From assembly GCA_017559445.1 (NCBI GenBank), contig JAFYSJ010000006.1:380-64379 (forward strand): DNA of 64,000 nucleotides, in the 5' to 3' direction. The notes below the pieces were generated by a model. That model was not told the origin of the DNA. It was given only the letters and a program-made list of their open reading frames with translations, and did no database searches. Position numbers and translations under genes: made by a program. The DNA is from Clostridia bacterium. GTDB lineage: Bacteria; Bacillota; Clostridia; RGIG7378. Every line of letters starts with the position of its first letter. The stretch's first letter is position 1. This document shows positions 4,850 through 61,376 of this stretch, piece by piece.

Positions 4850-5323
4850 ATGAAATTATTATTCAAACAGCGTTTCTTTTCATGGTTCGACAGTTACGAT
4901 ATTTACGATGAAGCAGGCAACACAGTGTTTGTCGTAAAGGGTGAGCTTTCATGGGGTCACTTGCTTCGCATTTACGATGCCAATGGAAGAGAAGTTGGAT
5001 GCGTTAGGGAGAAGGTTTTCAGCTTTCTTCCAAGGTTTGAGATGTATATTAGAGGAGCCTATATAGGTTGCATTACTAAGGAACTTACATTCTTTAAGCC
5101 AAAGTTTAACATCGACTATAATGGTTGGAGTGTAAAGGGAGACTGGTTTGAGTGGGATTATTCCATCGTAAACTCATACGGATCTAACGTGGCAACTGTG
5201 TCTAAGCAATTGTGGAATTGGACAGATACATACGTAATCGACATTAATGACTCGGAAGATGCACTTTGTGCACTTATGCTGGTATTGGCTATTGACGCAG
5301 AAAAGTGTTCCAGACGAGACTAA
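4850..5323 (+). CDS. LURP-one-related (DUF567/tubby-like) family protein
   Basis: MKLLFKQRFFSWFDSYDIYDEAGN...WGHLLRIYDANGREVG pattern characteristic of the family. Confidence 0.7.
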   Translation: MKLLFKQRFFSWFDSYDIYDEAGNTVFVVKGELSWGHLLRIYDANGREVGCVREKVFSFLPRFEMYIRGAYIGCITKELTFFKPKFNIDYNGWSVKGDWFEWDYSIVNSYGSNVATVSKQLWNWTDTYVIDINDSEDALCALMLVLAIDAEKCSRRD

Positions 5324-9308: not shown

Positions 9309-9746
9309 TTGGAGTTTAAGAGTAAGTTTTTTGATCAGCTAACGACTAGGGATTTGTACGAGATTGTTCGCTCTAGGACAGAGATCTTTTTGCTTGAGCA
9401 GAACATAATCTGTCAGGACTTCGACTGCGTAGATTACGATGCGCTTCATTGTTTCATTGAGGACAAGGACAGAGTTGTGGCATATTTGAGGGCATACCGC
9501 AATGAGGAAGGTCACATTAAGATTGGCCGAGTTCTTTCTTTGGTTCATGGACAGGGTTTGGGACTTAAGCTCATGAACATGGCAATGCCAGTTATTGCAG
9601 AAAAGTTTGGCAAGGAGACGGTGCACATTAACGCCCAGTCCCATGCCATTGGATTTTATGAAAAAGTAGGTTTTGTGGTTACATCTGAGGAGTTTTTGGA
9701 AGAAAATGTGCCTCACGTAGCCATGGAGTACAGGGAGGAAACATGA
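9309..9746 (+). CDS. GNAT-family acetyltransferase (ElaA-like), TTG start
   Basis: ElaA-like length and pattern (LYEIVRSRTEIFLLEQ...), AGGGAG RBS. Confidence 0.55.
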   Translation: MEFKSKFFDQLTTRDLYEIVRSRTEIFLLEQNIICQDFDCVDYDALHCFIEDKDRVVAYLRAYRNEEGHIKIGRVLSLVHGQGLGLKLMNMAMPVIAEKFGKETVHINAQSHAIGFYEKVGFVVTSEEFLEENVPHVAMEYREET

Positions 9747-10378
9747 TTAACAAGACAAAGGCATACGAAAATGCAGCAAACACAATTATCGCTAACTTGA
9801 AGAAGCGCCAGATGGAGGGCTACTACTGCGCTACTAAGGAAGAGGCAATGGACAAGATCCTTTCTCTCATGCCAGAGGGTTCTAGCATTGGATGGGGCGG
9901 CTCTATGACACTTGGTCAGCTTGGTTTTTACGATGCAGTAAAGGGCAAGGGATACGACGTAATCGACAGATACGCAGCTAAGACAGTAGAAGAGCAGAAG
10001 GATGTTAATGCAAGACTTGTTAATTCAGATTTCTTCTTTATGAGCACAAACGCTATTACAGTGGATGGCCAGCTCGTTAACATCGACGGTAGAGGTAGTC
10101 GTTTAGCATTCCTTTGCTACGGACCCGAAAATGTTATTGTTGTAACAGGTATGAATAAGGTTGTTGAGGACGTGGACAGCGGCATTAAGAGAATTCACAC
10201 AATCGCTGCACCTGCAAATACAGTTAGACTTAGCCGCAAGACACCTTGCGCTACAACAGGCCACTGTGGTAACTGCATGTCACCAGATTGTATTTGCTCT
10301 CAGACAGTTATTACTAGATTTTCCACCGTCCCAGGTAGAATCAAGGTTATCCTTGTAGGTGAGGAATTGGGCTACTAA
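9743..10378 (+). CDS. LUD-domain (LutC/YkgG-like lactate-utilization) protein
   Basis: Family pattern; 4-nt overlap with upstream gene. Confidence 0.55.
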   Translation: MINKTKAYENAANTIIANLKKRQMEGYYCATKEEAMDKILSLMPEGSSIGWGGSMTLGQLGFYDAVKGKGYDVIDRYAAKTVEEQKDVNARLVNSDFFFMSTNAITVDGQLVNIDGRGSRLAFLCYGPENVIVVTGMNKVVEDVDSGIKRIHTIAAPANTVRLSRKTPCATTGHCGNCMSPDCICSQTVITRFSTVPGRIKVILVGEELGY

Positions 10379-13762: not shown

Positions 13763-14014
13763 TCACTTGGTAAACTTGTGGTTAATAAAATCTACGCAAC
13801 TTTGGCAAATCCATTTATCGCCAATGTTATGAAGATTGTCCTCTTTGCCACAAATTGCACATCTGCTCGTAGCAGCTTGGATTGTGATCGTGTTGCCCTG
13901 AAGGTTAATAGATACTGGAGAGTCAGTCTCAAGGCTAAGGGCCTTCCTGAAATTGGCAGGAATAACCACGCGACCTAACTCGTCAATATGGCGAATGTGA
14001 TTGTTATTCTCCAT
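13763..14014 (-). CDS. AbrB/MazE-fold antitoxin with C-terminal C4 zinc ribbon
   Basis: IDELGRVVIPANFRKALSL swapped-hairpin motif; CAICGK...CQSC; 57 nt upstream of toxin. Confidence 0.65.
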   Translation of the reverse strand: MENNNHIRHIDELGRVVIPANFRKALSLETDSPVSINLQGNTITIQAATSRCAICGKEDNLHNIGDKWICQSCVDFINHKFTK

Positions 14015-16383: not shown

Positions 16384-17076
16384 ATGATAGAGAAAATTTA
16401 TACCATACCCGTTAACGAAGTTTTTACAGCTAAGCCATGTTCATGTCCATTGTGTGCCATGAAGGAAAGATTTGAGCAGGATCGTATCGATTATGTACTT
16501 GGCCCTGCACTTATGGAACCAGATGTGCGTACAGCAACTAACGAAAAGGGTTTTTGCCCAAGACATTATGCCATGCTCTTTAACAGTCACAAGAACAGCG
16601 TTGGTTTGGGCCTCCTCACAAATACATATATTGAGACTGTGCAGAAAAAGTTGTCCGGAGGTATGCGTCACCGCTCCGATAAGGATTTGGCTGCAGCACT
16701 TGAGAAGATGAATAGCTCTTGCTTCATTTGTGACCAGCTTAACTTCACAATGGACAGATATATTGATGTTATTTACTGGCAGTATGCCAATGACAAGGAT
16801 TTCCGTCAGCTCTTTAGAGAGCAGGATGGATTCTGTTTAGAGCACTTCCGTCAGCTTTGCGCTAGAGCTAAAAAGGGTTTGCCTGGCAAAATGAAGGGTG
16901 AGTTCATGAACGACCTTTGTAATGTGCAGAGCCGCAAGTTGGCTGAGCTCCAGGCAGACGTGGATTGGTTTACCAAGAAGTTTGACTATAGATACAAAGA
17001 TGAGCCTTGGAATAATTCTAAGGATGCAGTTCAGAGATCTATTCAGTTCTTGAAGGGAAAAGTGGAACTTAATTAG
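16384..17076 (+). CDS. conserved cysteine-rich hypothetical protein (possibly DUF6062-like)
   Basis: CSCPLC, CPRH, CFIC, CLEH motifs; its TAG stop is the first TAG of the downstream repeat element. Confidence 0.5.
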   Translation: MIEKIYTIPVNEVFTAKPCSCPLCAMKERFEQDRIDYVLGPALMEPDVRTATNEKGFCPRHYAMLFNSHKNSVGLGLLTNTYIETVQKKLSGGMRHRSDKDLAAALEKMNSSCFICDQLNFTMDRYIDVIYWQYANDKDFRQLFREQDGFCLEHFRQLCARAKKGLPGKMKGEFMNDLCNVQSRKLAELQADVDWFTKKFDYRYKDEPWNNSKDAVQRSIQFLKGKVELN

Positions 17077-17489
17077 TGAACCACGAGCAAAGCTCGTTAG
17101 TGACCGCAAGCAAAGCTTGCTAGTATTCGCTCGTTGCACTCGCTAGTGAACCGCTGCGCCTAGTAGGCCACGAGCAGAGCTCGTTAGTGAACCGCCTTCG
17201 GCTAGTAGGCCACGAGCAGAGCTCGTTAGTGACCGCAAGCAAAGCTTGCTAGTATTCGCTCGTTGCACTCGCTAGTGAACCGCCTTCGGCTAGTGAATAT
17301 TCATTACTTTGGAACGACCCAAAGTAACCAAAAGTCGCCCGCTACTTCCGAAGCGCGGGAGGCACGGGTTTGCAAAGCTGTGCTTTGCAGTGGTTAGTGC
17401 TTAGTTATTAGTGTTTAGCGAATGAAACATGTTCCTATAATGACCATTGGAACATAGGTACCAACACTAAACACCAAAATGGGGGGATA
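17074..17489 (+). repeat. composite intergenic element copy A: hairpin/double-stop array, three-hairpin core, -10 box, CA-rich tail
   Basis: Units such as ccacgagcagagctcgtTAGTGAacc and gccttcggcTAGTAGg; core 17291-17400; TATAAT 17436-17441; cactaaacaccaaa tail. Confidence 0.75.
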
Positions 17490-17491
17490 AT

Positions 17492-19936
17492 ATGAAGAAA
17501 CTGTTGTCTGTAATGTTAGTTATTACCTTGATAGGAGTTCTTTGCGCTTGTGGAGCAGATAAAACCACGGGAGTTACTCCTACCGCCACACCCACAGTAG
17601 AGGCTACTGGTACTCCTGAACCAACAGCCAGTCCTATCACCACACCCACAGCTACTCCTACAGTAGCTCCTACAGAAGTGCCCACAGAGGCACCGACAGA
17701 GGCACCGACAGAGGCTCCTACAGCTGAGCCGACAAATGCTCCAACAACTGTTCCTGGTGCTACAGCAACGCCAGAACCAGCAGCAACAGCAACACCGGAA
17801 CCAGCACCTACGGTAACACCAAAGCCTACTGCTGTACCTGCACCTACACCGAAACCTACTGCAACTCCTAAGCCAACAGCGACACCGATTCCCACCCCCA
17901 CGCCAGTGAGAAGTGATTCCGTAGGACTTAGCTATAAGGTGAACGCAGATGGAACAACAATTACTATTACTGGCATTGGCACATGCAAAGATGAACATCT
18001 TGTTATTGGCTCCAAGATTGATGGATATACAGTAACAGCCATCGGCGATAGGGCTTTCTATGGATTGGACACCGTGTTTACTGTTACAATTGCAGACACT
18101 GTCACTAGGATAGGAAGCTACGCATTTGCAGAATGTTGGTTGATGACTGCGGCATATCTTCCAGATAGTATTACAAAAATTGATACAAATGCCTTTGCTA
18201 TGTGCGAATCCTTGGAGAGAGTAAATATTCCCAAGGGCCTTAAGGTCATAGAGCTGGGTACATTTAATGATACTATTATTAAGAGTATTGTTATTCCAGA
18301 GGGTGTAGTCGAAATTGAAGACGATGCATTCAACGATTGTCGTTTTGTTACGGAATTGGTTATCCCTAAATCAGTAATAACAATTGGTGAAAGGGCATTC
18401 CAGGGCCTCGGTGCCAAAACTTTACGCATTCCAGGAACTGTTGAGAATATCAGAGAAGGGGCTTTCTTTGGATCAGCTATTGAAACTTTGATTATTGAAG
18501 AGGGTAATCTTAAGAATGCAGAAGGTGCATTTTCTGGATGCGCAAACTTAACAACAGTATCACTTCCTAAGACACTGTCTAAAATTCATAAGAGTATGTT
18601 TGCGGAAAGTGGATTGGTTAGCTTTACTGTTCCGTCTACTATTGAATCTATAGAAGAAAATGCTTTTGAGGACTGCAATAAGTTAACAGAAGTGGTATTT
18701 TCTAATAATCTTAAGTCAATTGGAGCTGGTGTTTTTAGAGGGTGCAGTGTCCTTACGAGCATAACTATTCCAGGAAATATTGAGACTATTCCCGTAGCAG
18801 CTTTTGAAAATTGCAAGAAATTGGAGAAAGTAGTCCTTTCCGAAGGCGTAAAAAACATTCAAAAGCAAGCTTTTAAGAATTGCGAAAGGCTTGTTTCTAT
18901 AACATTCCCCAAATCTCTAGAGTTGATTTACCAGTACGCCTTTGAAAATTGTGATTCTCTTATCAAGGTTGAATTTTACAACGTAGATACTATTGGAGGT
19001 GGAGCCTTTAGAGAATGTAGGTCTTTGACTAAGGTTGTATTTGCTAATGGAGTTCGACAGATTGGAGATCAGGCGTTTTACAGATGCGAATCTCTTACAT
19101 CAATAAATTATTCCGAAGGTACAGAGTATATTGGTGAAGAAGCATTTGGAGGATGTGAATCTTTGCAGAAGATTACGATTCCAAGCACCATAAAGACTCT
19201 CGGAGAGGCTGCATTTGAAGGATGTAAATCCATAACAGAGATAGTTATCCCCAAAATTATAGTAGATATTCCCAATAAGCTTTTTAAGGAATGCTACAAG
19301 CTTAAGAATATAACTATTGAGGATGGCATTCGTAGCATTGGATTGGATGCATTTGCTTATTGTTATGCGCTTAAGGAAATTAATATCCCAAGCAGTGTAA
19401 CTACTATTGGATCTGCTGCCTTCTATAGTTCTGGATTGGAGAAAATGGTGCTTCCCAATGGTCTTACTTCTATAGAAATAAGGACATTTAGTGAATGCAG
19501 CTCTTTAAAGAGCATATACATTCCAGATAGTGTAACAACTATTGGCATGTCTGCTTTCTATAATTGCGTAGCTCTTGAAGAAATATACATTCCAGATAGT
19601 GTAACAACTTTGAGTGGTCATGCATTCTATTTGTGTAAGGCATTAACAAAGGTAAGACTTTCAGGAAACATTGAGTATGTAGATAGTAGGGCATTTGCGC
19701 ATTGCATATCACTTAAGGAATTTGTATTCCCAGAGGGTATAGAGATACTTGGTGCTTGGATATTCGAGGGATGTACGGCATTAGAAGAGGTATACATTCC
19801 AGATAGTGTAACAACAATTGATAGGGGCATATTTGCGGATTGTTCAAAACTTAAGAAGGTTCGTATTCCTGCAGGAATTGACAATCTAAGCGAGATTTTT
19901 GAATATTCAAATAACAAGGTTGAAATTGTGAACTAA
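17492..19936 (+). CDS. BspA-type leucine-rich-repeat cell-surface lipoprotein with PT-rich linker
   Basis: Signal peptide plus Cys (LIGVLCACG), about 110-aa P/T/A/E linker, more than 20 LRR_5-like repeats of about 23 aa (..L..V.IP..V..IG..AF..C..L..). Confidence 0.85.
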   Translation: MKKLLSVMLVITLIGVLCACGADKTTGVTPTATPTVEATGTPEPTASPITTPTATPTVAPTEVPTEAPTEAPTEAPTAEPTNAPTTVPGATATPEPAATATPEPAPTVTPKPTAVPAPTPKPTATPKPTATPIPTPTPVRSDSVGLSYKVNADGTTITITGIGTCKDEHLVIGSKIDGYTVTAIGDRAFYGLDTVFTVTIADTVTRIGSYAFAECWLMTAAYLPDSITKIDTNAFAMCESLERVNIPKGLKVIELGTFNDTIIKSIVIPEGVVEIEDDAFNDCRFVTELVIPKSVITIGERAFQGLGAKTLRIPGTVENIREGAFFGSAIETLIIEEGNLKNAEGAFSGCANLTTVSLPKTLSKIHKSMFAESGLVSFTVPSTIESIEENAFEDCNKLTEVVFSNNLKSIGAGVFRGCSVLTSITIPGNIETIPVAAFENCKKLEKVVLSEGVKNIQKQAFKNCERLVSITFPKSLELIYQYAFENCDSLIKVEFYNVDTIGGGAFRECRSLTKVVFANGVRQIGDQAFYRCESLTSINYSEGTEYIGEEAFGGCESLQKITIPSTIKTLGEAAFEGCKSITEIVIPKIIVDIPNKLFKECYKLKNITIEDGIRSIGLDAFAYCYALKEINIPSSVTTIGSAAFYSSGLEKMVLPNGLTSIEIRTFSECSSLKSIYIPDSVTTIGMSAFYNCVALEEIYIPDSVTTLSGHAFYLCKALTKVRLSGNIEYVDSRAFAHCISLKEFVFPEGIEILGAWIFEGCTALEEVYIPDSVTTIDRGIFADCSKLKKVRIPAGIDNLSEIFEYSNNKVEIVN

Positions 19937-20339
19937 AGCTCGTTAGTGAACCACTTCGTTAGTGAGCCGCTGCGCTAGTGGCCGCACCGTTGGTGCTAGT
20001 GAACCGGCTACGCCTAGTAGGCCACGAGCAGAGCTCGTTAGTGAGCCGCCTTTGGCTAGTGAATATTCATTACTTTGGAACGACCCAAAGTAACCAAAAG
20101 TCGCCCGCTACTTCCGAAGCGCGGGAGGCACGGTTCGCAAAGCTATGCTTTGCAGTTATTAGTTATTAGTTATTAGTGTTTAGCGAATGAAACATGTTCC
20201 TTTTAAAAATAGATCATAGGAACAAAGAAACCTGCACTAAACACCAAACACTCAACACGAAACACTAGATGCGTAGTATCTTGGAACATAGGTACCAGCA
20301 CTAACCACCAAACACTAAACACTAAAATGGGGGGATAAT
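19937..20339 (+). repeat. composite intergenic element copy B
   Basis: Same architecture as copy A, starting 1 nt after the TAA of the upstream LRR gene; has an about 110-bp insertion in the tail region. Confidence 0.75.
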
Positions 20340-23069
20340 ATGAAGAAACTGTTATCTTTAATGTTGATTATTACATTGGTAGGAGTTCTTTGCGCTTGTG
20401 AAGAGAATAGGACAACAGGAATTACTCCTACTGCCATACCTACAGCAGAGGTTACTGGTACTCCTGAACCTACAGGGACACCCACAGCCGCACCTACAGA
20501 GGAGCCTACAGTTACTCCCACGGTAGCTCCAACAGAGGAGCCAACAGAAGATCAAACAGAGACTCCTACATCTACTCCAGAGGCAAAACCTACAGTAACG
20601 CCCACACCTAAACCAACGGCAACACCCACGCCAAAACCAACGGTAACACCTACACCAAGGCCTACATCCACCCCAGCACCAACACCTACTCCCGTTAGAA
20701 GTGATTCCGTAGGCCTTGACTATACTGTGAATTCAGATGGTGTTACATGTACAGTTACAGGTATAGGTACATGTACAGATGAGCATCTTGTAATTGGCTC
20801 TAAGATTGATGGATATACAGTTACAGCTATAGGAGAAGGCGCATTCCGTGGAAACAACATTAAGACAGTAACAATTGCAAATACAGTTACCTTTATTGGC
20901 AAACATGCTTTCCGCGAATGCTCTAATTTGACAGCCGCATATCTTCCAGATAGCGTTACAACCATGGAATCAAATGTTTTTGCGTATTCCGAATCCTTAG
21001 AAAGGGTAAACATTCCTAAGGGGTTAAAGGTTATAGCACGTGGAGCATTTAGAGGTACTAAACTAAAAAGCCTTGTTCTTCCAGAGGGATTGGTCGAGAT
21101 TGAGGAAGATGCCTTTAGTGAATGCATGTATGTTACAGAGCTCGTTATACCCAAATCCTTAACCACAATTGGCGAGAGTGCATTCTTGGGGCTTGGAGCA
21201 ACAACACTGGTTATCCCAGCAACTGTAGAACATATTTCATCTGGAGCGTTTGCTGGTTCATATATCGAGAATTTGATTATTCAGGGAGATATAAAGGTTG
21301 CGGAAGGTGCCTTTGCAGAATGTGGATGCTTAAAGAATGTAGTATTCCCCAAGGATATGAGTAAGATTCAGAAGAGCATGTTCGCAGGAAGTGGTCTTGA
21401 AAGTATCACAATTCCCTCCAATATTTTAAGTATCGGTGAATATGCTTTTGCTAGTTGCGATAAATTGGTTAATGTAACAATTCCACAAAACGTTACGGTA
21501 ATTGGAATTGGAGCATTTAAGGCTTGCAGTGCCCTAAAAACAGTAACTATTCCAGGTAGTGTAGAGAATATTCCAGAATCAGCATTCTATGAATGCAAGA
21601 ATTTGGAGAAGGTTGTTATTTCCGAAGGCGTAAAAAACATATTGAAAAACGCTTTTAAGAATTGCCAAAAGCTCGTTTCTGTAACATTTCCCACAAGTCT
21701 TGATCTAATTTATCAGTATGCATTTGAGGGTTGCAATTCTCTAATTAAGGTCGAATTGCATAGCGTAACAACTATTGGCGGTGCAGCATTTAGAAATTGC
21801 AAGTCCTTAACACAGGTTAAGATTACCAAGAGTCTTAAGCAAGTTGGAGATGAGGCATTCTTGAATTGTCCTGCACTTACATACATAAATCTACCACAGG
21901 GATTAGAGTATATTGGAAGTTATTCCTTTAAGAATTGTAGTTCATTACAGAGCATAACAATTCCTAATACTGTAACAGAGATAAAGAAGAACGCTTTTGA
22001 GTTGTGTACATCTTTGAGAAAAGTTTCTATTCCAGCAAGTGTGGGAATAATTCCAGATTTCATGTTTAGGGACTGTGCTAATTTGTCCGAGGTTATTATT
22101 AGTGATGGAGTCACAGGCATTGGCCTAGGTGCTTTCTATGGGTGTTCATCACTTAAGGAGGTTGTAATACCAGAAAGTGCTACAAATCTTTCAGGTGACA
22201 TATTCTGGCTATGTACAAGTTTAGAAAAGGTCACTTTGCCTAATGGAATTGCAGCTATCCCAACATTTACATTTTTTGGATGCTCATCACTGAAGGAATT
22301 TAATTTCCCAACTTCTGCAACAACTATTGAATCAAGAGCATTTGAAGGATGCGATGCCCTTAAGGAAATAGTAATTCCAGAAAGAATAACAAAAATAGAG
22401 AGTGCTGTATTTAGAAATTGCGAGTCTTTAGAAAAAGTGGTTCTCCATAATGGAATTACTGTTATTAGCGAAAGCTTATTCTATGGTTGCAAATCCTTGA
22501 AAGTGGTTAATATACCAAACAGTGTAACTACGATTGAACATGGAGCCTTTGAAGAATGTAGTTCTTTGGAAGAAATCTATATTCCAGAAAGTGTAACATC
22601 CTTTGGAACTAGCGTATTTAGATTTTGCTATTCTCTAAAGAAAGTAAATATCCCTAATGGAATCACTACTATTCCTATGTCAATGTTTGGAAGTTGTAAA
22701 TCCCTTAAGGAAATAGAAATTCCAGAAAGTGTAACATTTATTGATATGGGCGCATTCGGAGGGTGTACGAAGCTGGAAAAGGTTGTTCTTCCTAGCGGAC
22801 TAACACGTCTGAGTACCAGTGTTTTTGATGGATGCAGTTCTCTGAAAAATATTAATATCCCTGAAGGCATTACAGGTATATGGTGGGAGGTATTCCGTGA
22901 TTGTGTTTCCTTGGAGGAAATCTACTTACCAGATAGTGTAAAGACAATAGAAAGATATGCATTTAAGGGATGCACAAAATTAAGGAAGATTCGAATTCCA
23001 GCTACAGCGCAATGGTCTGAGGAAGCATTTGAGGGATGTCCCGATGATTTGGAGATTATAGTGGAGTAA
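20340..23069 (+). CDS. BspA-type leucine-rich-repeat cell-surface lipoprotein (tandem paralog)
   Basis: N-terminus, RBS and linker nearly identical to the 17492 gene; longer LRR array. Confidence 0.85.
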   Translation: MKKLLSLMLIITLVGVLCACEENRTTGITPTAIPTAEVTGTPEPTGTPTAAPTEEPTVTPTVAPTEEPTEDQTETPTSTPEAKPTVTPTPKPTATPTPKPTVTPTPRPTSTPAPTPTPVRSDSVGLDYTVNSDGVTCTVTGIGTCTDEHLVIGSKIDGYTVTAIGEGAFRGNNIKTVTIANTVTFIGKHAFRECSNLTAAYLPDSVTTMESNVFAYSESLERVNIPKGLKVIARGAFRGTKLKSLVLPEGLVEIEEDAFSECMYVTELVIPKSLTTIGESAFLGLGATTLVIPATVEHISSGAFAGSYIENLIIQGDIKVAEGAFAECGCLKNVVFPKDMSKIQKSMFAGSGLESITIPSNILSIGEYAFASCDKLVNVTIPQNVTVIGIGAFKACSALKTVTIPGSVENIPESAFYECKNLEKVVISEGVKNILKNAFKNCQKLVSVTFPTSLDLIYQYAFEGCNSLIKVELHSVTTIGGAAFRNCKSLTQVKITKSLKQVGDEAFLNCPALTYINLPQGLEYIGSYSFKNCSSLQSITIPNTVTEIKKNAFELCTSLRKVSIPASVGIIPDFMFRDCANLSEVIISDGVTGIGLGAFYGCSSLKEVVIPESATNLSGDIFWLCTSLEKVTLPNGIAAIPTFTFFGCSSLKEFNFPTSATTIESRAFEGCDALKEIVIPERITKIESAVFRNCESLEKVVLHNGITVISESLFYGCKSLKVVNIPNSVTTIEHGAFEECSSLEEIYIPESVTSFGTSVFRFCYSLKKVNIPNGITTIPMSMFGSCKSLKEIEIPESVTFIDMGAFGGCTKLEKVVLPSGLTRLSTSVFDGCSSLKNINIPEGITGIWWEVFRDCVSLEEIYLPDSVKTIERYAFKGCTKLRKIRIPATAQWSEEAFEGCPDDLEIIVE

Positions 23070-53931: not shown

Positions 53932-54060
53932 GCTCTTTACTAGCAACGCAGTTGCGGCTCACTAGCACAAATAGTGCGTTTTACTAGCGAGCTTGCTCGC
54001 GGCTCATTAGCAAGCTGTGCTTGCGTTTAACTGGCATCGTGCGAAGCTTTGCTTCAGCAC
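53932..54060 (-). repeat. element copy E (hairpin/double-stop array, minus orientation) between rnhA stop and rluB-like start
   Basis: cactagc/tactagc units; the rnhA TGA stop lies in the first hairpin gtgctgaagcaaagcttcgcac. Confidence 0.65.
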
Positions 54061-61112: not shown

Positions 61113-61376
61113 TTGAAGGTCAAAAATTAGGGGAGTATAATGAAGGTGCCTGGGATGTTCGGTTAACCTAATATTTTGAACCTACACCGAGTAAAAGGGG
61201 ACTTAGGTTTGTGAGGGATGTCGGGCTTCATCATTCGGCCTTATGGTCGGCAGTAGAGGACAGTAACGATGCAACAGAGACCCCACCTAGCATATGCTGG
61301 GTGTCAAAATACGGGACTCGGCATATCCGGGTTTTAAGGATTATGAGGCGGATGGCGGTGGCTGTCCGCTTTTTTG
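61113..61376 (+). ncRNA. candidate small RNA / structured leader (about 230 nt) delimited by promoter and terminator
   Basis: TTGAAG-17-TATAAT (61113-61141); terminator gcggatggcggtggctgtccgc plus T7 (61347-61376); 5' tattttga pairs with 3' tcaaaata; no T-box consensus seen. Confidence 0.3.

Follow-up and report, generated by a model that had tools for sequence, protein, structure and literature searches.

A repeated three-hairpin core in a Clostridia genome: a probable member of a double-pseudoknot RNA family shared by gut and rumen Clostridia and their phages

Is the core of about 110 nt that recurs between genes of a Clostridia bacterium a structured RNA, or are its hairpins by-products of a dispersed repeat? 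We addressed this question for a stretch of 64,000 nt of contig JAFYSJ010000006.1, which is referred to here as the window. The preliminary description had placed three hairpins at 17291-17400 (+) and had reported two further copies, and the letters at this position are those it quoted. The 23-mer of hairpin 1 occurs exactly at 17307 (+), 20073 (+) and 34488 (-) and nowhere else in the window, with no occurrence expected from 100 shuffles, so that the three-copy core is well founded. Besides copy A at 17291-17400, the copies are B at ~20057-20172 (+) and C at ~34414-34525 (-). Alignment of the three regions shows cores that are near-identical over ~100 nt, the variation being confined to a few unpaired positions and to hairpin 3, and flanks that consist of related modules in rearranged order.

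Hairpin 3 reads GCAAAGC-TGT-GCTTTGC in A, GCAAAGC-TAT-GCTTTGC in B and GCAAAC-TTC-GTTTGC in C, as described before. The compensatory exchange that had been read from these stems stands in part. Pairing is kept in all copies, but the stem has 6 bp in C and 7 bp in A and B, and a G:C to C:G swap with loss of the innermost pair is only one of two equivalent readings, the other being a coordinated deletion of one pair. A lone compensatory change among three paralogous copies is weak evidence and insufficient by itself, and single-sequence folding is mildly better than for shuffled sequences (z = -2.6 on the plus strand, -2.85 on the minus strand). The strong evidence is provided by relatives elsewhere.

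Twelve of these relatives, gut and phage sequences without any from the window, were used to build the covariance model R1. Run on the window with filters off, R1 finds exactly the three cores, at 17302..17393 for A (30.0 bits, E 5e-6), 20068..20172 for B (33.6 bits, E 6.5e-7) and 34414..34515 for C (32.6 bits, E 1.2e-6), the next match reaching 10.8 bits (E 0.4). In the retrieved metagenome and viral loci it matches ~150 sites. The 18-mer CTACTTCCGAAGCGCGGG from the middle of the core occurs in 7 viral loci, all of them true relatives, and in 74 metagenome loci, ~63 of which are true relatives. The metagenome relatives lie on G+C-rich contigs, mostly labelled human gut. The 30-nt middle CCCGCTACTTCCGAAGCGCGGGAGGCACGG is identical in the window and in the G+C-rich copies, while hairpins 1 and 3 are entirely different in sequence and still form hairpins. 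Scanning for the pattern of the 3' strand of hairpin 1 and the following linker, together with blastn, added copies with a diverged middle, including 50 viral contigs. As the window itself is a contig of a rumen metagenome, the family spans rumen and human-gut Clostridia plus their phages.

The family is uncatalogued in Rfam 15. At the gathering threshold the whole window yields a tRNA and 6S RNA only, with nothing at the cores, and eight related loci have no match at the element; at E up to 10, positions 16900-17600 of the window and 10050-10350 of the related locus L046 give chance-level eukaryotic matches only. The 6S/SsrS RNA gene lies at 61144-61337 (+) (RF00013, 52.3 bits), and one element-bearing contig, L074, carries a drum RNA at 5078-5190 (-) (RF02958, 55.6 bits). 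The plasmid database holds no match to the element, and a scan of genome contigs with the hairpin-1 stems left free, in a collection without the window's species, gave a chance match in Thalassotalea only. Two further viral scans were discarded: the hairpin-1 17-mer has six matches, and both inspected ones fall inside apparent coding sequence, while GAAGCGCGGGAGGCACGG has two extra matches, one inside an HU-like gene and the other coding by eye. No description of the motif was found in the literature searched (full text and supplementary files); the bulk catalogues of candidate structured RNAs in PMC8040213 and PMC10690425 may list it unnamed.

From 5' to 3' the fold consists of hairpin P1, ACCA with an A-rich strand, a first pseudoknot (PK1), hairpin P2, a second pseudoknot (PK2) and hairpin P3. 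P1 is a long hairpin of 9-13 bp whose 5' strand is rich in pyrimidines and whose 3' strand is rich in purines. In copy A it pairs 17304-17312 with 17319-17327 around the loop 17313-17318, in copy B 20070-20078 with 20085-20093, and in copy C, on the minus strand, 34513-34505 with 34498-34490. The CCA/A-rich linker J12 follows at 17328-17333 in copy A. P2 is a short G+C helix, CCCGC/GCGGG, with the invariant UU-CGA-GC in its loop (A, 17338-17342 with 17355-17359; B, 20104-20108 with 20121-20125; C, 34479-34475 with 34462-34458). P3 is a hairpin of variable sequence, formed by 17372-17378 with 17382-17388 in A, 20137-20143 with 20147-20153 in B and, with 6 bp, 34446-34441 with 34437-34432 in C. 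Some human-gut copies (L055 ~2800-2860 and matching stretches of L075 and L085) have P3 replaced by a recurrent module, GGCTTCCCCCTCTGGGGGAAGCTGTCACCGCAGGTGACTGATGAGGGGGAAA, which contains the string CUGAUGAG; L055 has no Rfam match at the gathering threshold.

All three hairpins of the preliminary description are confirmed by covariation across 70 distinct family sequences aligned to the model. Standard pairs are found in 94.9% of cells compared to 78.7% in shuffles, and compensatory changes are numerous in P1 and P3. Changes on both sides affect 23 of 31 pairs (14.6 in shuffles), and the covariation score is 0.346 against 0.099 in shuffles, none of 500 reaching it, and 0.03-0.08 with the partners slid, for sequences that are related and for P1, P2 and P3 columns that were fitted to the model. 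The third pair of P2 varies: 43 sequences have C-G and 10 have A-U, and U.G and G.U are each found once. An alternative pairing of the middle proposed by RNAalifold (CCG/CGG plus UUCCG/CGGGR) has a C.U mismatch in variant V3; we prefer CCCGC/GCGGG because a G-to-U change in this variant is compensated only there. G.U pairs in the stems are not clearly commoner than A.C mismatches. Since these counts are indecisive, the strand was assigned from gene orientation and downstream U-tracts and not from the pairs.

Both pseudoknots were revealed by a mutual-information scan. Since neither is part of the model, the alignment is not biased towards them. In PK1, an H-type pseudoknot, the loop of P1 is paired with the 3-4 nt that immediately precede P2. 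The complementary sequences are found in at least 10 different combinations, among them CGUGC/GCAC, CGCGC/GCGC, GCAC/GUGC, CAG/CUG, GAC/GUC and CCC/GGG, and none of 20000 permutations reaches the observed complementarity. The length of the linker tracks that of P1, with 6 nt for 9 bp, 7 nt for 11 bp and 8-9 nt for 13 bp, as expected if the linker spans the P1 helix in an H-type pseudoknot. In PK2 the YCG of the P2 loop pairs with CGR of the conserved CACGR 3' of P2; at the variable pair 34 sequences have C-G, 21 have U-A and 5 are unpaired, and the independent events are few. The window copies conform to both, with CGAC pairing with GUCG in PK1 (A, 17315-17318 with 17334-17337; B, 20081-20084 with 20100-20103; C, 34502-34499 with 34483-34480) and CCG with the CGG of CACGG in PK2 (A, 17348-17350 with 17365-17367; B, 20114-20116 with 20131-20133; C, 34469-34467 with 34452-34450). 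The helices of copy A were assigned from family covariation. Invariant nucleotides follow P1 (ACCA) and P2 (CAC-G) and also occur within the linker (AAA) and the loop of P2 (UU-CGA-GC). In some phage copies an extra domain of ~100 nt is placed between the linker and P2 or inside P2. A sigma-54 promoter reading of GGCACG-N-TTGC was rejected, as the spacing is wrong and variable.

Among 64 distinct genomic contexts, 47 have a same-strand ORF of at least 80 aa (median 290) that terminates no more than 45 nt upstream of the element, compared to 13% at random positions. The distance from stop codon to element is mostly 3-20 nt, with a range of 1-22 nt. Phage contigs carry 2-4 copies each, all on one strand, behind genes for the large terminase, a P22-like portal, the major head protein, an internal virion protein and others, and chromosomal copies follow genes for an FMN-dependent dehydrogenase (FMN_dh), an AraC regulator, NIF3, a GT87 glycosyltransferase and an EF-G-like protein. 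The idea that all upstream genes are capsid-like proved wrong, one of them being FMN_dh and one a true capsid gene. A recoding signal at the upstream stop codon would call for a slippery heptamer or a leaky stop codon at a constant spacing of 5-9 nt and for a conserved extension of the frame; the spacing of 1-22 nt, unrelated upstream sequences and a reading frame that is not conserved gave no indication of one.

Downstream, a strong hairpin with a U-tract is present in 19 of 50 contexts and, judged by eye and uncounted, a weaker one in most others. The element itself does not look like an intrinsic terminator, as P1, P2 and P3 lack a U-tract and only P3 of copy B is weakly flagged; in the G+C-rich relatives the terminator is separate and lies 3' of the element. 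In most G+C-rich copies P3 is followed by a tail, CCCCAAAG(G/A)AG, which is an imperfect inverted copy of the 5' strand of P1. In phage copies the hairpin with its U-tract is followed by a further hairpin, an RBS and the start of the next gene. A recurrent structured module, GACGGGTTGCGGTGCCCAGCGACCACTTCGTGCCTTGAGTGGCACTCG..., occupies the terminator loop after some phage copies (L023 ~9350-9480, L027 ~2030-2160), and in L038 it is joined directly to a truncated core.

This phage arrangement raises the possibility of a conditional attenuator, in which the folded core, as a sensor of a ligand or of some phage or host factor, would gate transcription past the hairpin and U-tract into the next gene, a head gene in phages and an LRR lipoprotein gene in the window. 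The order of stop codon, element, hairpin with U6, second hairpin, RBS and next gene would suit such a device, as would the aptamer-like complexity of the fold, whose junctions and loops contain invariant nucleotides. In phage copies, alternative pairings are open to the tail and to the stretch 3' of the U-tract, and since the second hairpin shares the strand CUCGUUUC, mutually exclusive pairings are allowed; in the window, copies A and B precede paralogous genes for LRR lipoproteins. However, the competing strand lies 3' of the U-tract, too late to influence termination, the window copies have no terminator, the genes downstream are diverse and of no consistent class, and the well-conserved chromosomal copies at convergent gene ends have nothing downstream to regulate. 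We therefore regard an attenuator as unlikely.

Strains compared at the orthologous FMN_dh locus share 96-100% identity in the element and 95-100% in the terminator, against 86-89% over the last 300 nt of FMN_dh, where third positions are at ~66-72%. This pattern indicates purifying selection, or possibly gene conversion; high conservation could in part also reflect recent transfer or gene conversion. The joint conservation of element and terminator at 95-100% would also be expected of a small RNA that is released from the 3' UTR, extends from P1 through the terminator (~170-190 nt) and acts in trans or sequesters a protein, with the conserved single-stranded CCAGAAAAG and CCCCAAAG(G/A)AG as potential seeds or binding sites. 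Yet the element has no promoter of its own, the sequence upstream is unrelated between contexts, the window copies lack both tail and terminator, and several copies per phage operon would be odd for a small-RNA gene. Such an RNA is, in our view, very unlikely.

Taken together, covariation, two pseudoknots, the sense-strand position after stop codons and conservation above that of synonymous sites support the proposal of the preliminary description that a structured RNA module under selection is carried within a larger repeat. We consider it very probable that the core belongs to a structured RNA family under selection.

In each window copy the core is embedded in a composite repeat of ~400 nt, in which a hairpin-linker array is followed by the core and by downstream modules. 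The array unit of ~21 nt combines a short variable hairpin with a (C/G)TAGTRRRCC linker, which has 23 matches in the window against 0.65 expected. The array of core A extends over 17074..17290 (+) from the stop codon of the DUF6062 gene, that of core B over 19937..20056 (+) after the stop codon of the first LRR lipoprotein gene, and that of core C over 34524..34660 (-), with the dapF stop codon TAG within the first linker. Arrays occur at five places in the window, two of them without a core (32051-32186 (-) and 53954-54011 (-), or up to 54040). The array hairpins vary in sequence yet remain paired, the linker carries tandem stop codons, three arrays start exactly at the stop codon of a gene, and the arrays appear as a REP-like repeat family of this genome.

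The modules downstream of core A (17394..17491, +) reach to the RBS and ATG of the LRR gene at 17492 and include a hairpin, ATGTTCC/GGAACAT, which encloses TATAAT (17429-17455, +) and is followed by the CACTAAACACC repeat. Those of core B (20154..20339, +) extend up to the second LRR gene at 20340 in the order four UAG triplets, hairpin 4, CACTAAACAC repeats and hairpin AGATGCgtaGTATCT, and those of core C (34235..34413, -) up to tRNA-Arg(ACG). The three downstream stretches are homologous, with repeats of the CACTAAACACC type after the hairpin, which reads ACGTTCC/GGAACAC in C. Directly after cores A (17395-17418) and B (20160-20183) stand four UAG triplets with a period of 7 nt, that is, with 4-nt gaps, which are absent in C. 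UAG-N4 repeats are the targets of HutP-type antiterminator proteins, and the triplet pattern of A and B resembles them. The tRNA-Arg(ACG) gene at 34158-34234 (-) has its own promoter, read from the sequence as TTGCAT-N17-TATAAT, and a terminator at 34131-34158, and composite C is inserted between dapF and this promoter. Two tandem genes for BspA-like LRR lipoproteins of 814 and 909 aa with Pro/Thr-rich linkers occupy 17492-23069. Each is preceded by a composite repeat, and the pair is an insertion relative to a related MAG (L150), in which DUF6062 adjoins DUF1846. A few kb upstream of copy A, at ~13763-14014 (-), lies a MazE/PemK-type toxin-antitoxin pair, with homologous genes on L006 (Pfam).

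The window cores are located 215-260 nt 3' of stop codons, behind the hairpin arrays. Since neither a sigma-70 promoter nor a terminator consensus was found between the upstream stop codons and the cores, they are likely to be co-transcribed with the upstream gene. Two of the three lie upstream of genes, and no terminator follows any of them. At the same loci in related MAGs, with DapF proteins 73% and 84% identical, R1 has no matches: in the 73% relative a plain terminator separates dapF from tRNA-Arg and the DUF6062-DUF1846 interval contains no LRR genes, and the 84% relative has a short unrelated spacer at the dapF locus. We conclude that the three window copies are lineage-specific insertions and that the element is dispensable at these loci in the related species. 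Homologues of the LRR lipoproteins were unusable as a way to orthologous leaders, being repeat proteins of only ~30% identity.

Lineage-specific insertion is also what a selfish, non-autonomous mobile repeat of the MITE, BOX or REP type would produce, in which case the element would act at the DNA level and its hairpins would serve its own spread or arise as by-products. The mosaic architecture, in which 100-nt inserts are optional and downstream modules are exchanged, the dispersal over phages and hosts, and the imperfect inverted repeat of 9-11 nt formed by the 5' strand of P1 and the tail in the G+C-rich copies point in this direction. A test for MITE features revealed no target-site duplication in the G+C-rich copies or on comparison of filled with empty sites, however; the window copies show neither such a duplication nor a terminal inverted repeat, and there is no transposase nearby. 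The placement is strictly on the sense strand after stop codons, and conservation at the orthologous FMN_dh locus is far above that of synonymous sites. Since covariation of the pseudoknots has no rationale at the DNA level, the selected unit is most probably the RNA, and we judge a purely selfish repeat to be very improbable. In the window the core has become part of a mosaic repeat restricted to this lineage, and no terminator follows it; its local role may therefore differ from that of the family, or it may be vestigial.

What could the RNA do? Among the mechanisms considered we favour, tentatively and at somewhat less than even likelihood, an action in cis on the end of the transcript, as a module of 3' UTRs and intercistronic regions that affects stability, processing or termination, because this is in keeping with the location of the element, with the terminator that accompanies it and with its recurrence at gene boundaries of phage operons. 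The core would be transcribed as the 3' end of the mRNA of the upstream gene, or as intercistronic spacer in phage head operons, and would fold into a compact module that acts jointly with the hairpin and U-tract usually following it. It might thereby set the fate of the transcript end, either by blocking 3'-to-5' decay or by marking a point of processing or termination, and the expression of the preceding gene would be tuned. Two observations do not fit well. The 30 invariant nucleotides and two pseudoknots exceed the needs of a simple exonuclease barrier and thus suggest a specific partner, protein or ligand, or catalysis; and in the window the cores are far from stop codons, lack a following terminator and mostly stand upstream of genes.

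The surplus of conserved structure leads to the question of whether the core itself could be a processing site that cuts polycistronic mRNA at gene boundaries, either as a minihelix of P1 and ACCA recognized by RNase P or as a new self-cleaving ribozyme. P1 with 9-13 bp followed by the invariant ACCA resembles an acceptor/T-arm minihelix with RCCA, for which a coaxial helix of about 12 bp and a T-loop would be expected, and the 5' boundary of the element at the base of P1 is sharp, 1-22 nt after the stop codon. Many small ribozymes sit between phage genes, where this double pseudoknot with its invariant nucleotides recurs as well. On the other hand, even at E = 10 no ribozyme or tRNA-like family of Rfam matches the stretches searched in the window and L046, the three hairpins are serial and not arranged around a multi-helix junction, and the P1 loop is engaged in PK1 and does not form a T-loop, which makes a processing site of this kind quite improbable. 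In a broader sense, the fold might represent a new catalytic or sensing RNA, be it a ribozyme, an RNase P-directed signal or a riboswitch-like sensor of a ligand or protein, which we hold to be decidedly doubtful. At almost all boundaries between head genes, phages of gut Clostridia would then use the fold to process or gate the late transcript, and their hosts would have co-opted the fold in their own 3' UTRs.

If functional, the family would represent an RNA element that is both new and widespread in the microbiomes of gut and rumen, with an unusual combination of a double pseudoknot and an invariant 30-nt centre, a position behind stop codons, several copies per phage head operon and single copies that are conserved in the 3' UTRs of hosts. 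Little is known of the biology of bacterial 3' UTRs or of how late phage mRNA is processed in Clostridia, and the family offers a testable handle with its defined fold, ~150 natural variants and natural compensatory mutants. It also illustrates how an apparent repeat in a single genome can turn out to be the local footprint of an RNA family that extends across species.

Several known systems invite comparison. Like E. coli REP/BIME, pneumococcal BOX A-B-C and the Neisseria Correia elements, the composite repeats consist of short modular hairpin units dispersed between genes. Repeats of this type are co-transcribed with genes, and some stabilise the upstream mRNA or are processed. The hallmark of REP/BIME is an imperfect palindrome of 20-40 nt with GTAG/CTAC, present in many copies and accompanied by a RAYT gene. 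The flanking hairpins with CTAGTRRRCC modules are REP-like in this respect, but the core is not a simple palindrome, and no RAYT gene was seen within the 64 kb of the window. In contrast to all three repeat types, to which it has no sequence relationship, the core possesses two covarying pseudoknots, a 30-nt invariant centre and a fixed place after stop codons, and it is common to distant hosts and phages. With the RNase III sites of T7 and the malE-malF REP stabiliser it shares the repeated occurrence of sense-strand structures at the 3' end of the upstream cistron. Those are simple irregular hairpins defined by a nuclease, whereas the core is a pseudoknotted three-helix fold with invariant loop nucleotides, for which we know of no nuclease.

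Antitermination RNAs such as HK022 put and Bacillus EAR are likewise folded nascent RNAs of ~70-120 nt in long operons, upstream of terminators, and EAR also contains a pseudoknot. The element differs from them in that it has no Rfam match, each copy is paired with its own terminator, and some copies end convergent transcription units, where read-through would be of no obvious use. The compact double pseudoknot and the neighbourhood of gut Clostridia and phages recall the HDV-like ribozymes of Faecalibacterium prausnitzii and the small ribozymes of gut phages. In HDV-like ribozymes, however, the pseudoknots are nested and not serial as in the core, and neither RF02682 nor RF00094 nor any other ribozyme model matches the element in window positions 16900-17600 or in the relatives tested. 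A formal likeness exists to recoding pseudoknots, which stimulate frameshifting or read-through of stop codons (IBV, MuLV, and the capsid and tail genes of phage PSA): P1 and PK1 form a classical H-type pseudoknot whose stem 1 has 11 bp and whose third loop is A-rich, often 5-11 nt after a stop codon at the ends of phage structural genes. Unlike these, the element has no conserved slippery site and also follows ordinary chromosomal genes, and since its frame varies, read-through or frameshifting would not yield a conserved extension. Judged by analogy, the core would work most like the RNA elements of intercistronic regions and 3' UTRs and like mosaic intergenic repeats, while P1/PK1 formally resembles a recoding pseudoknot.
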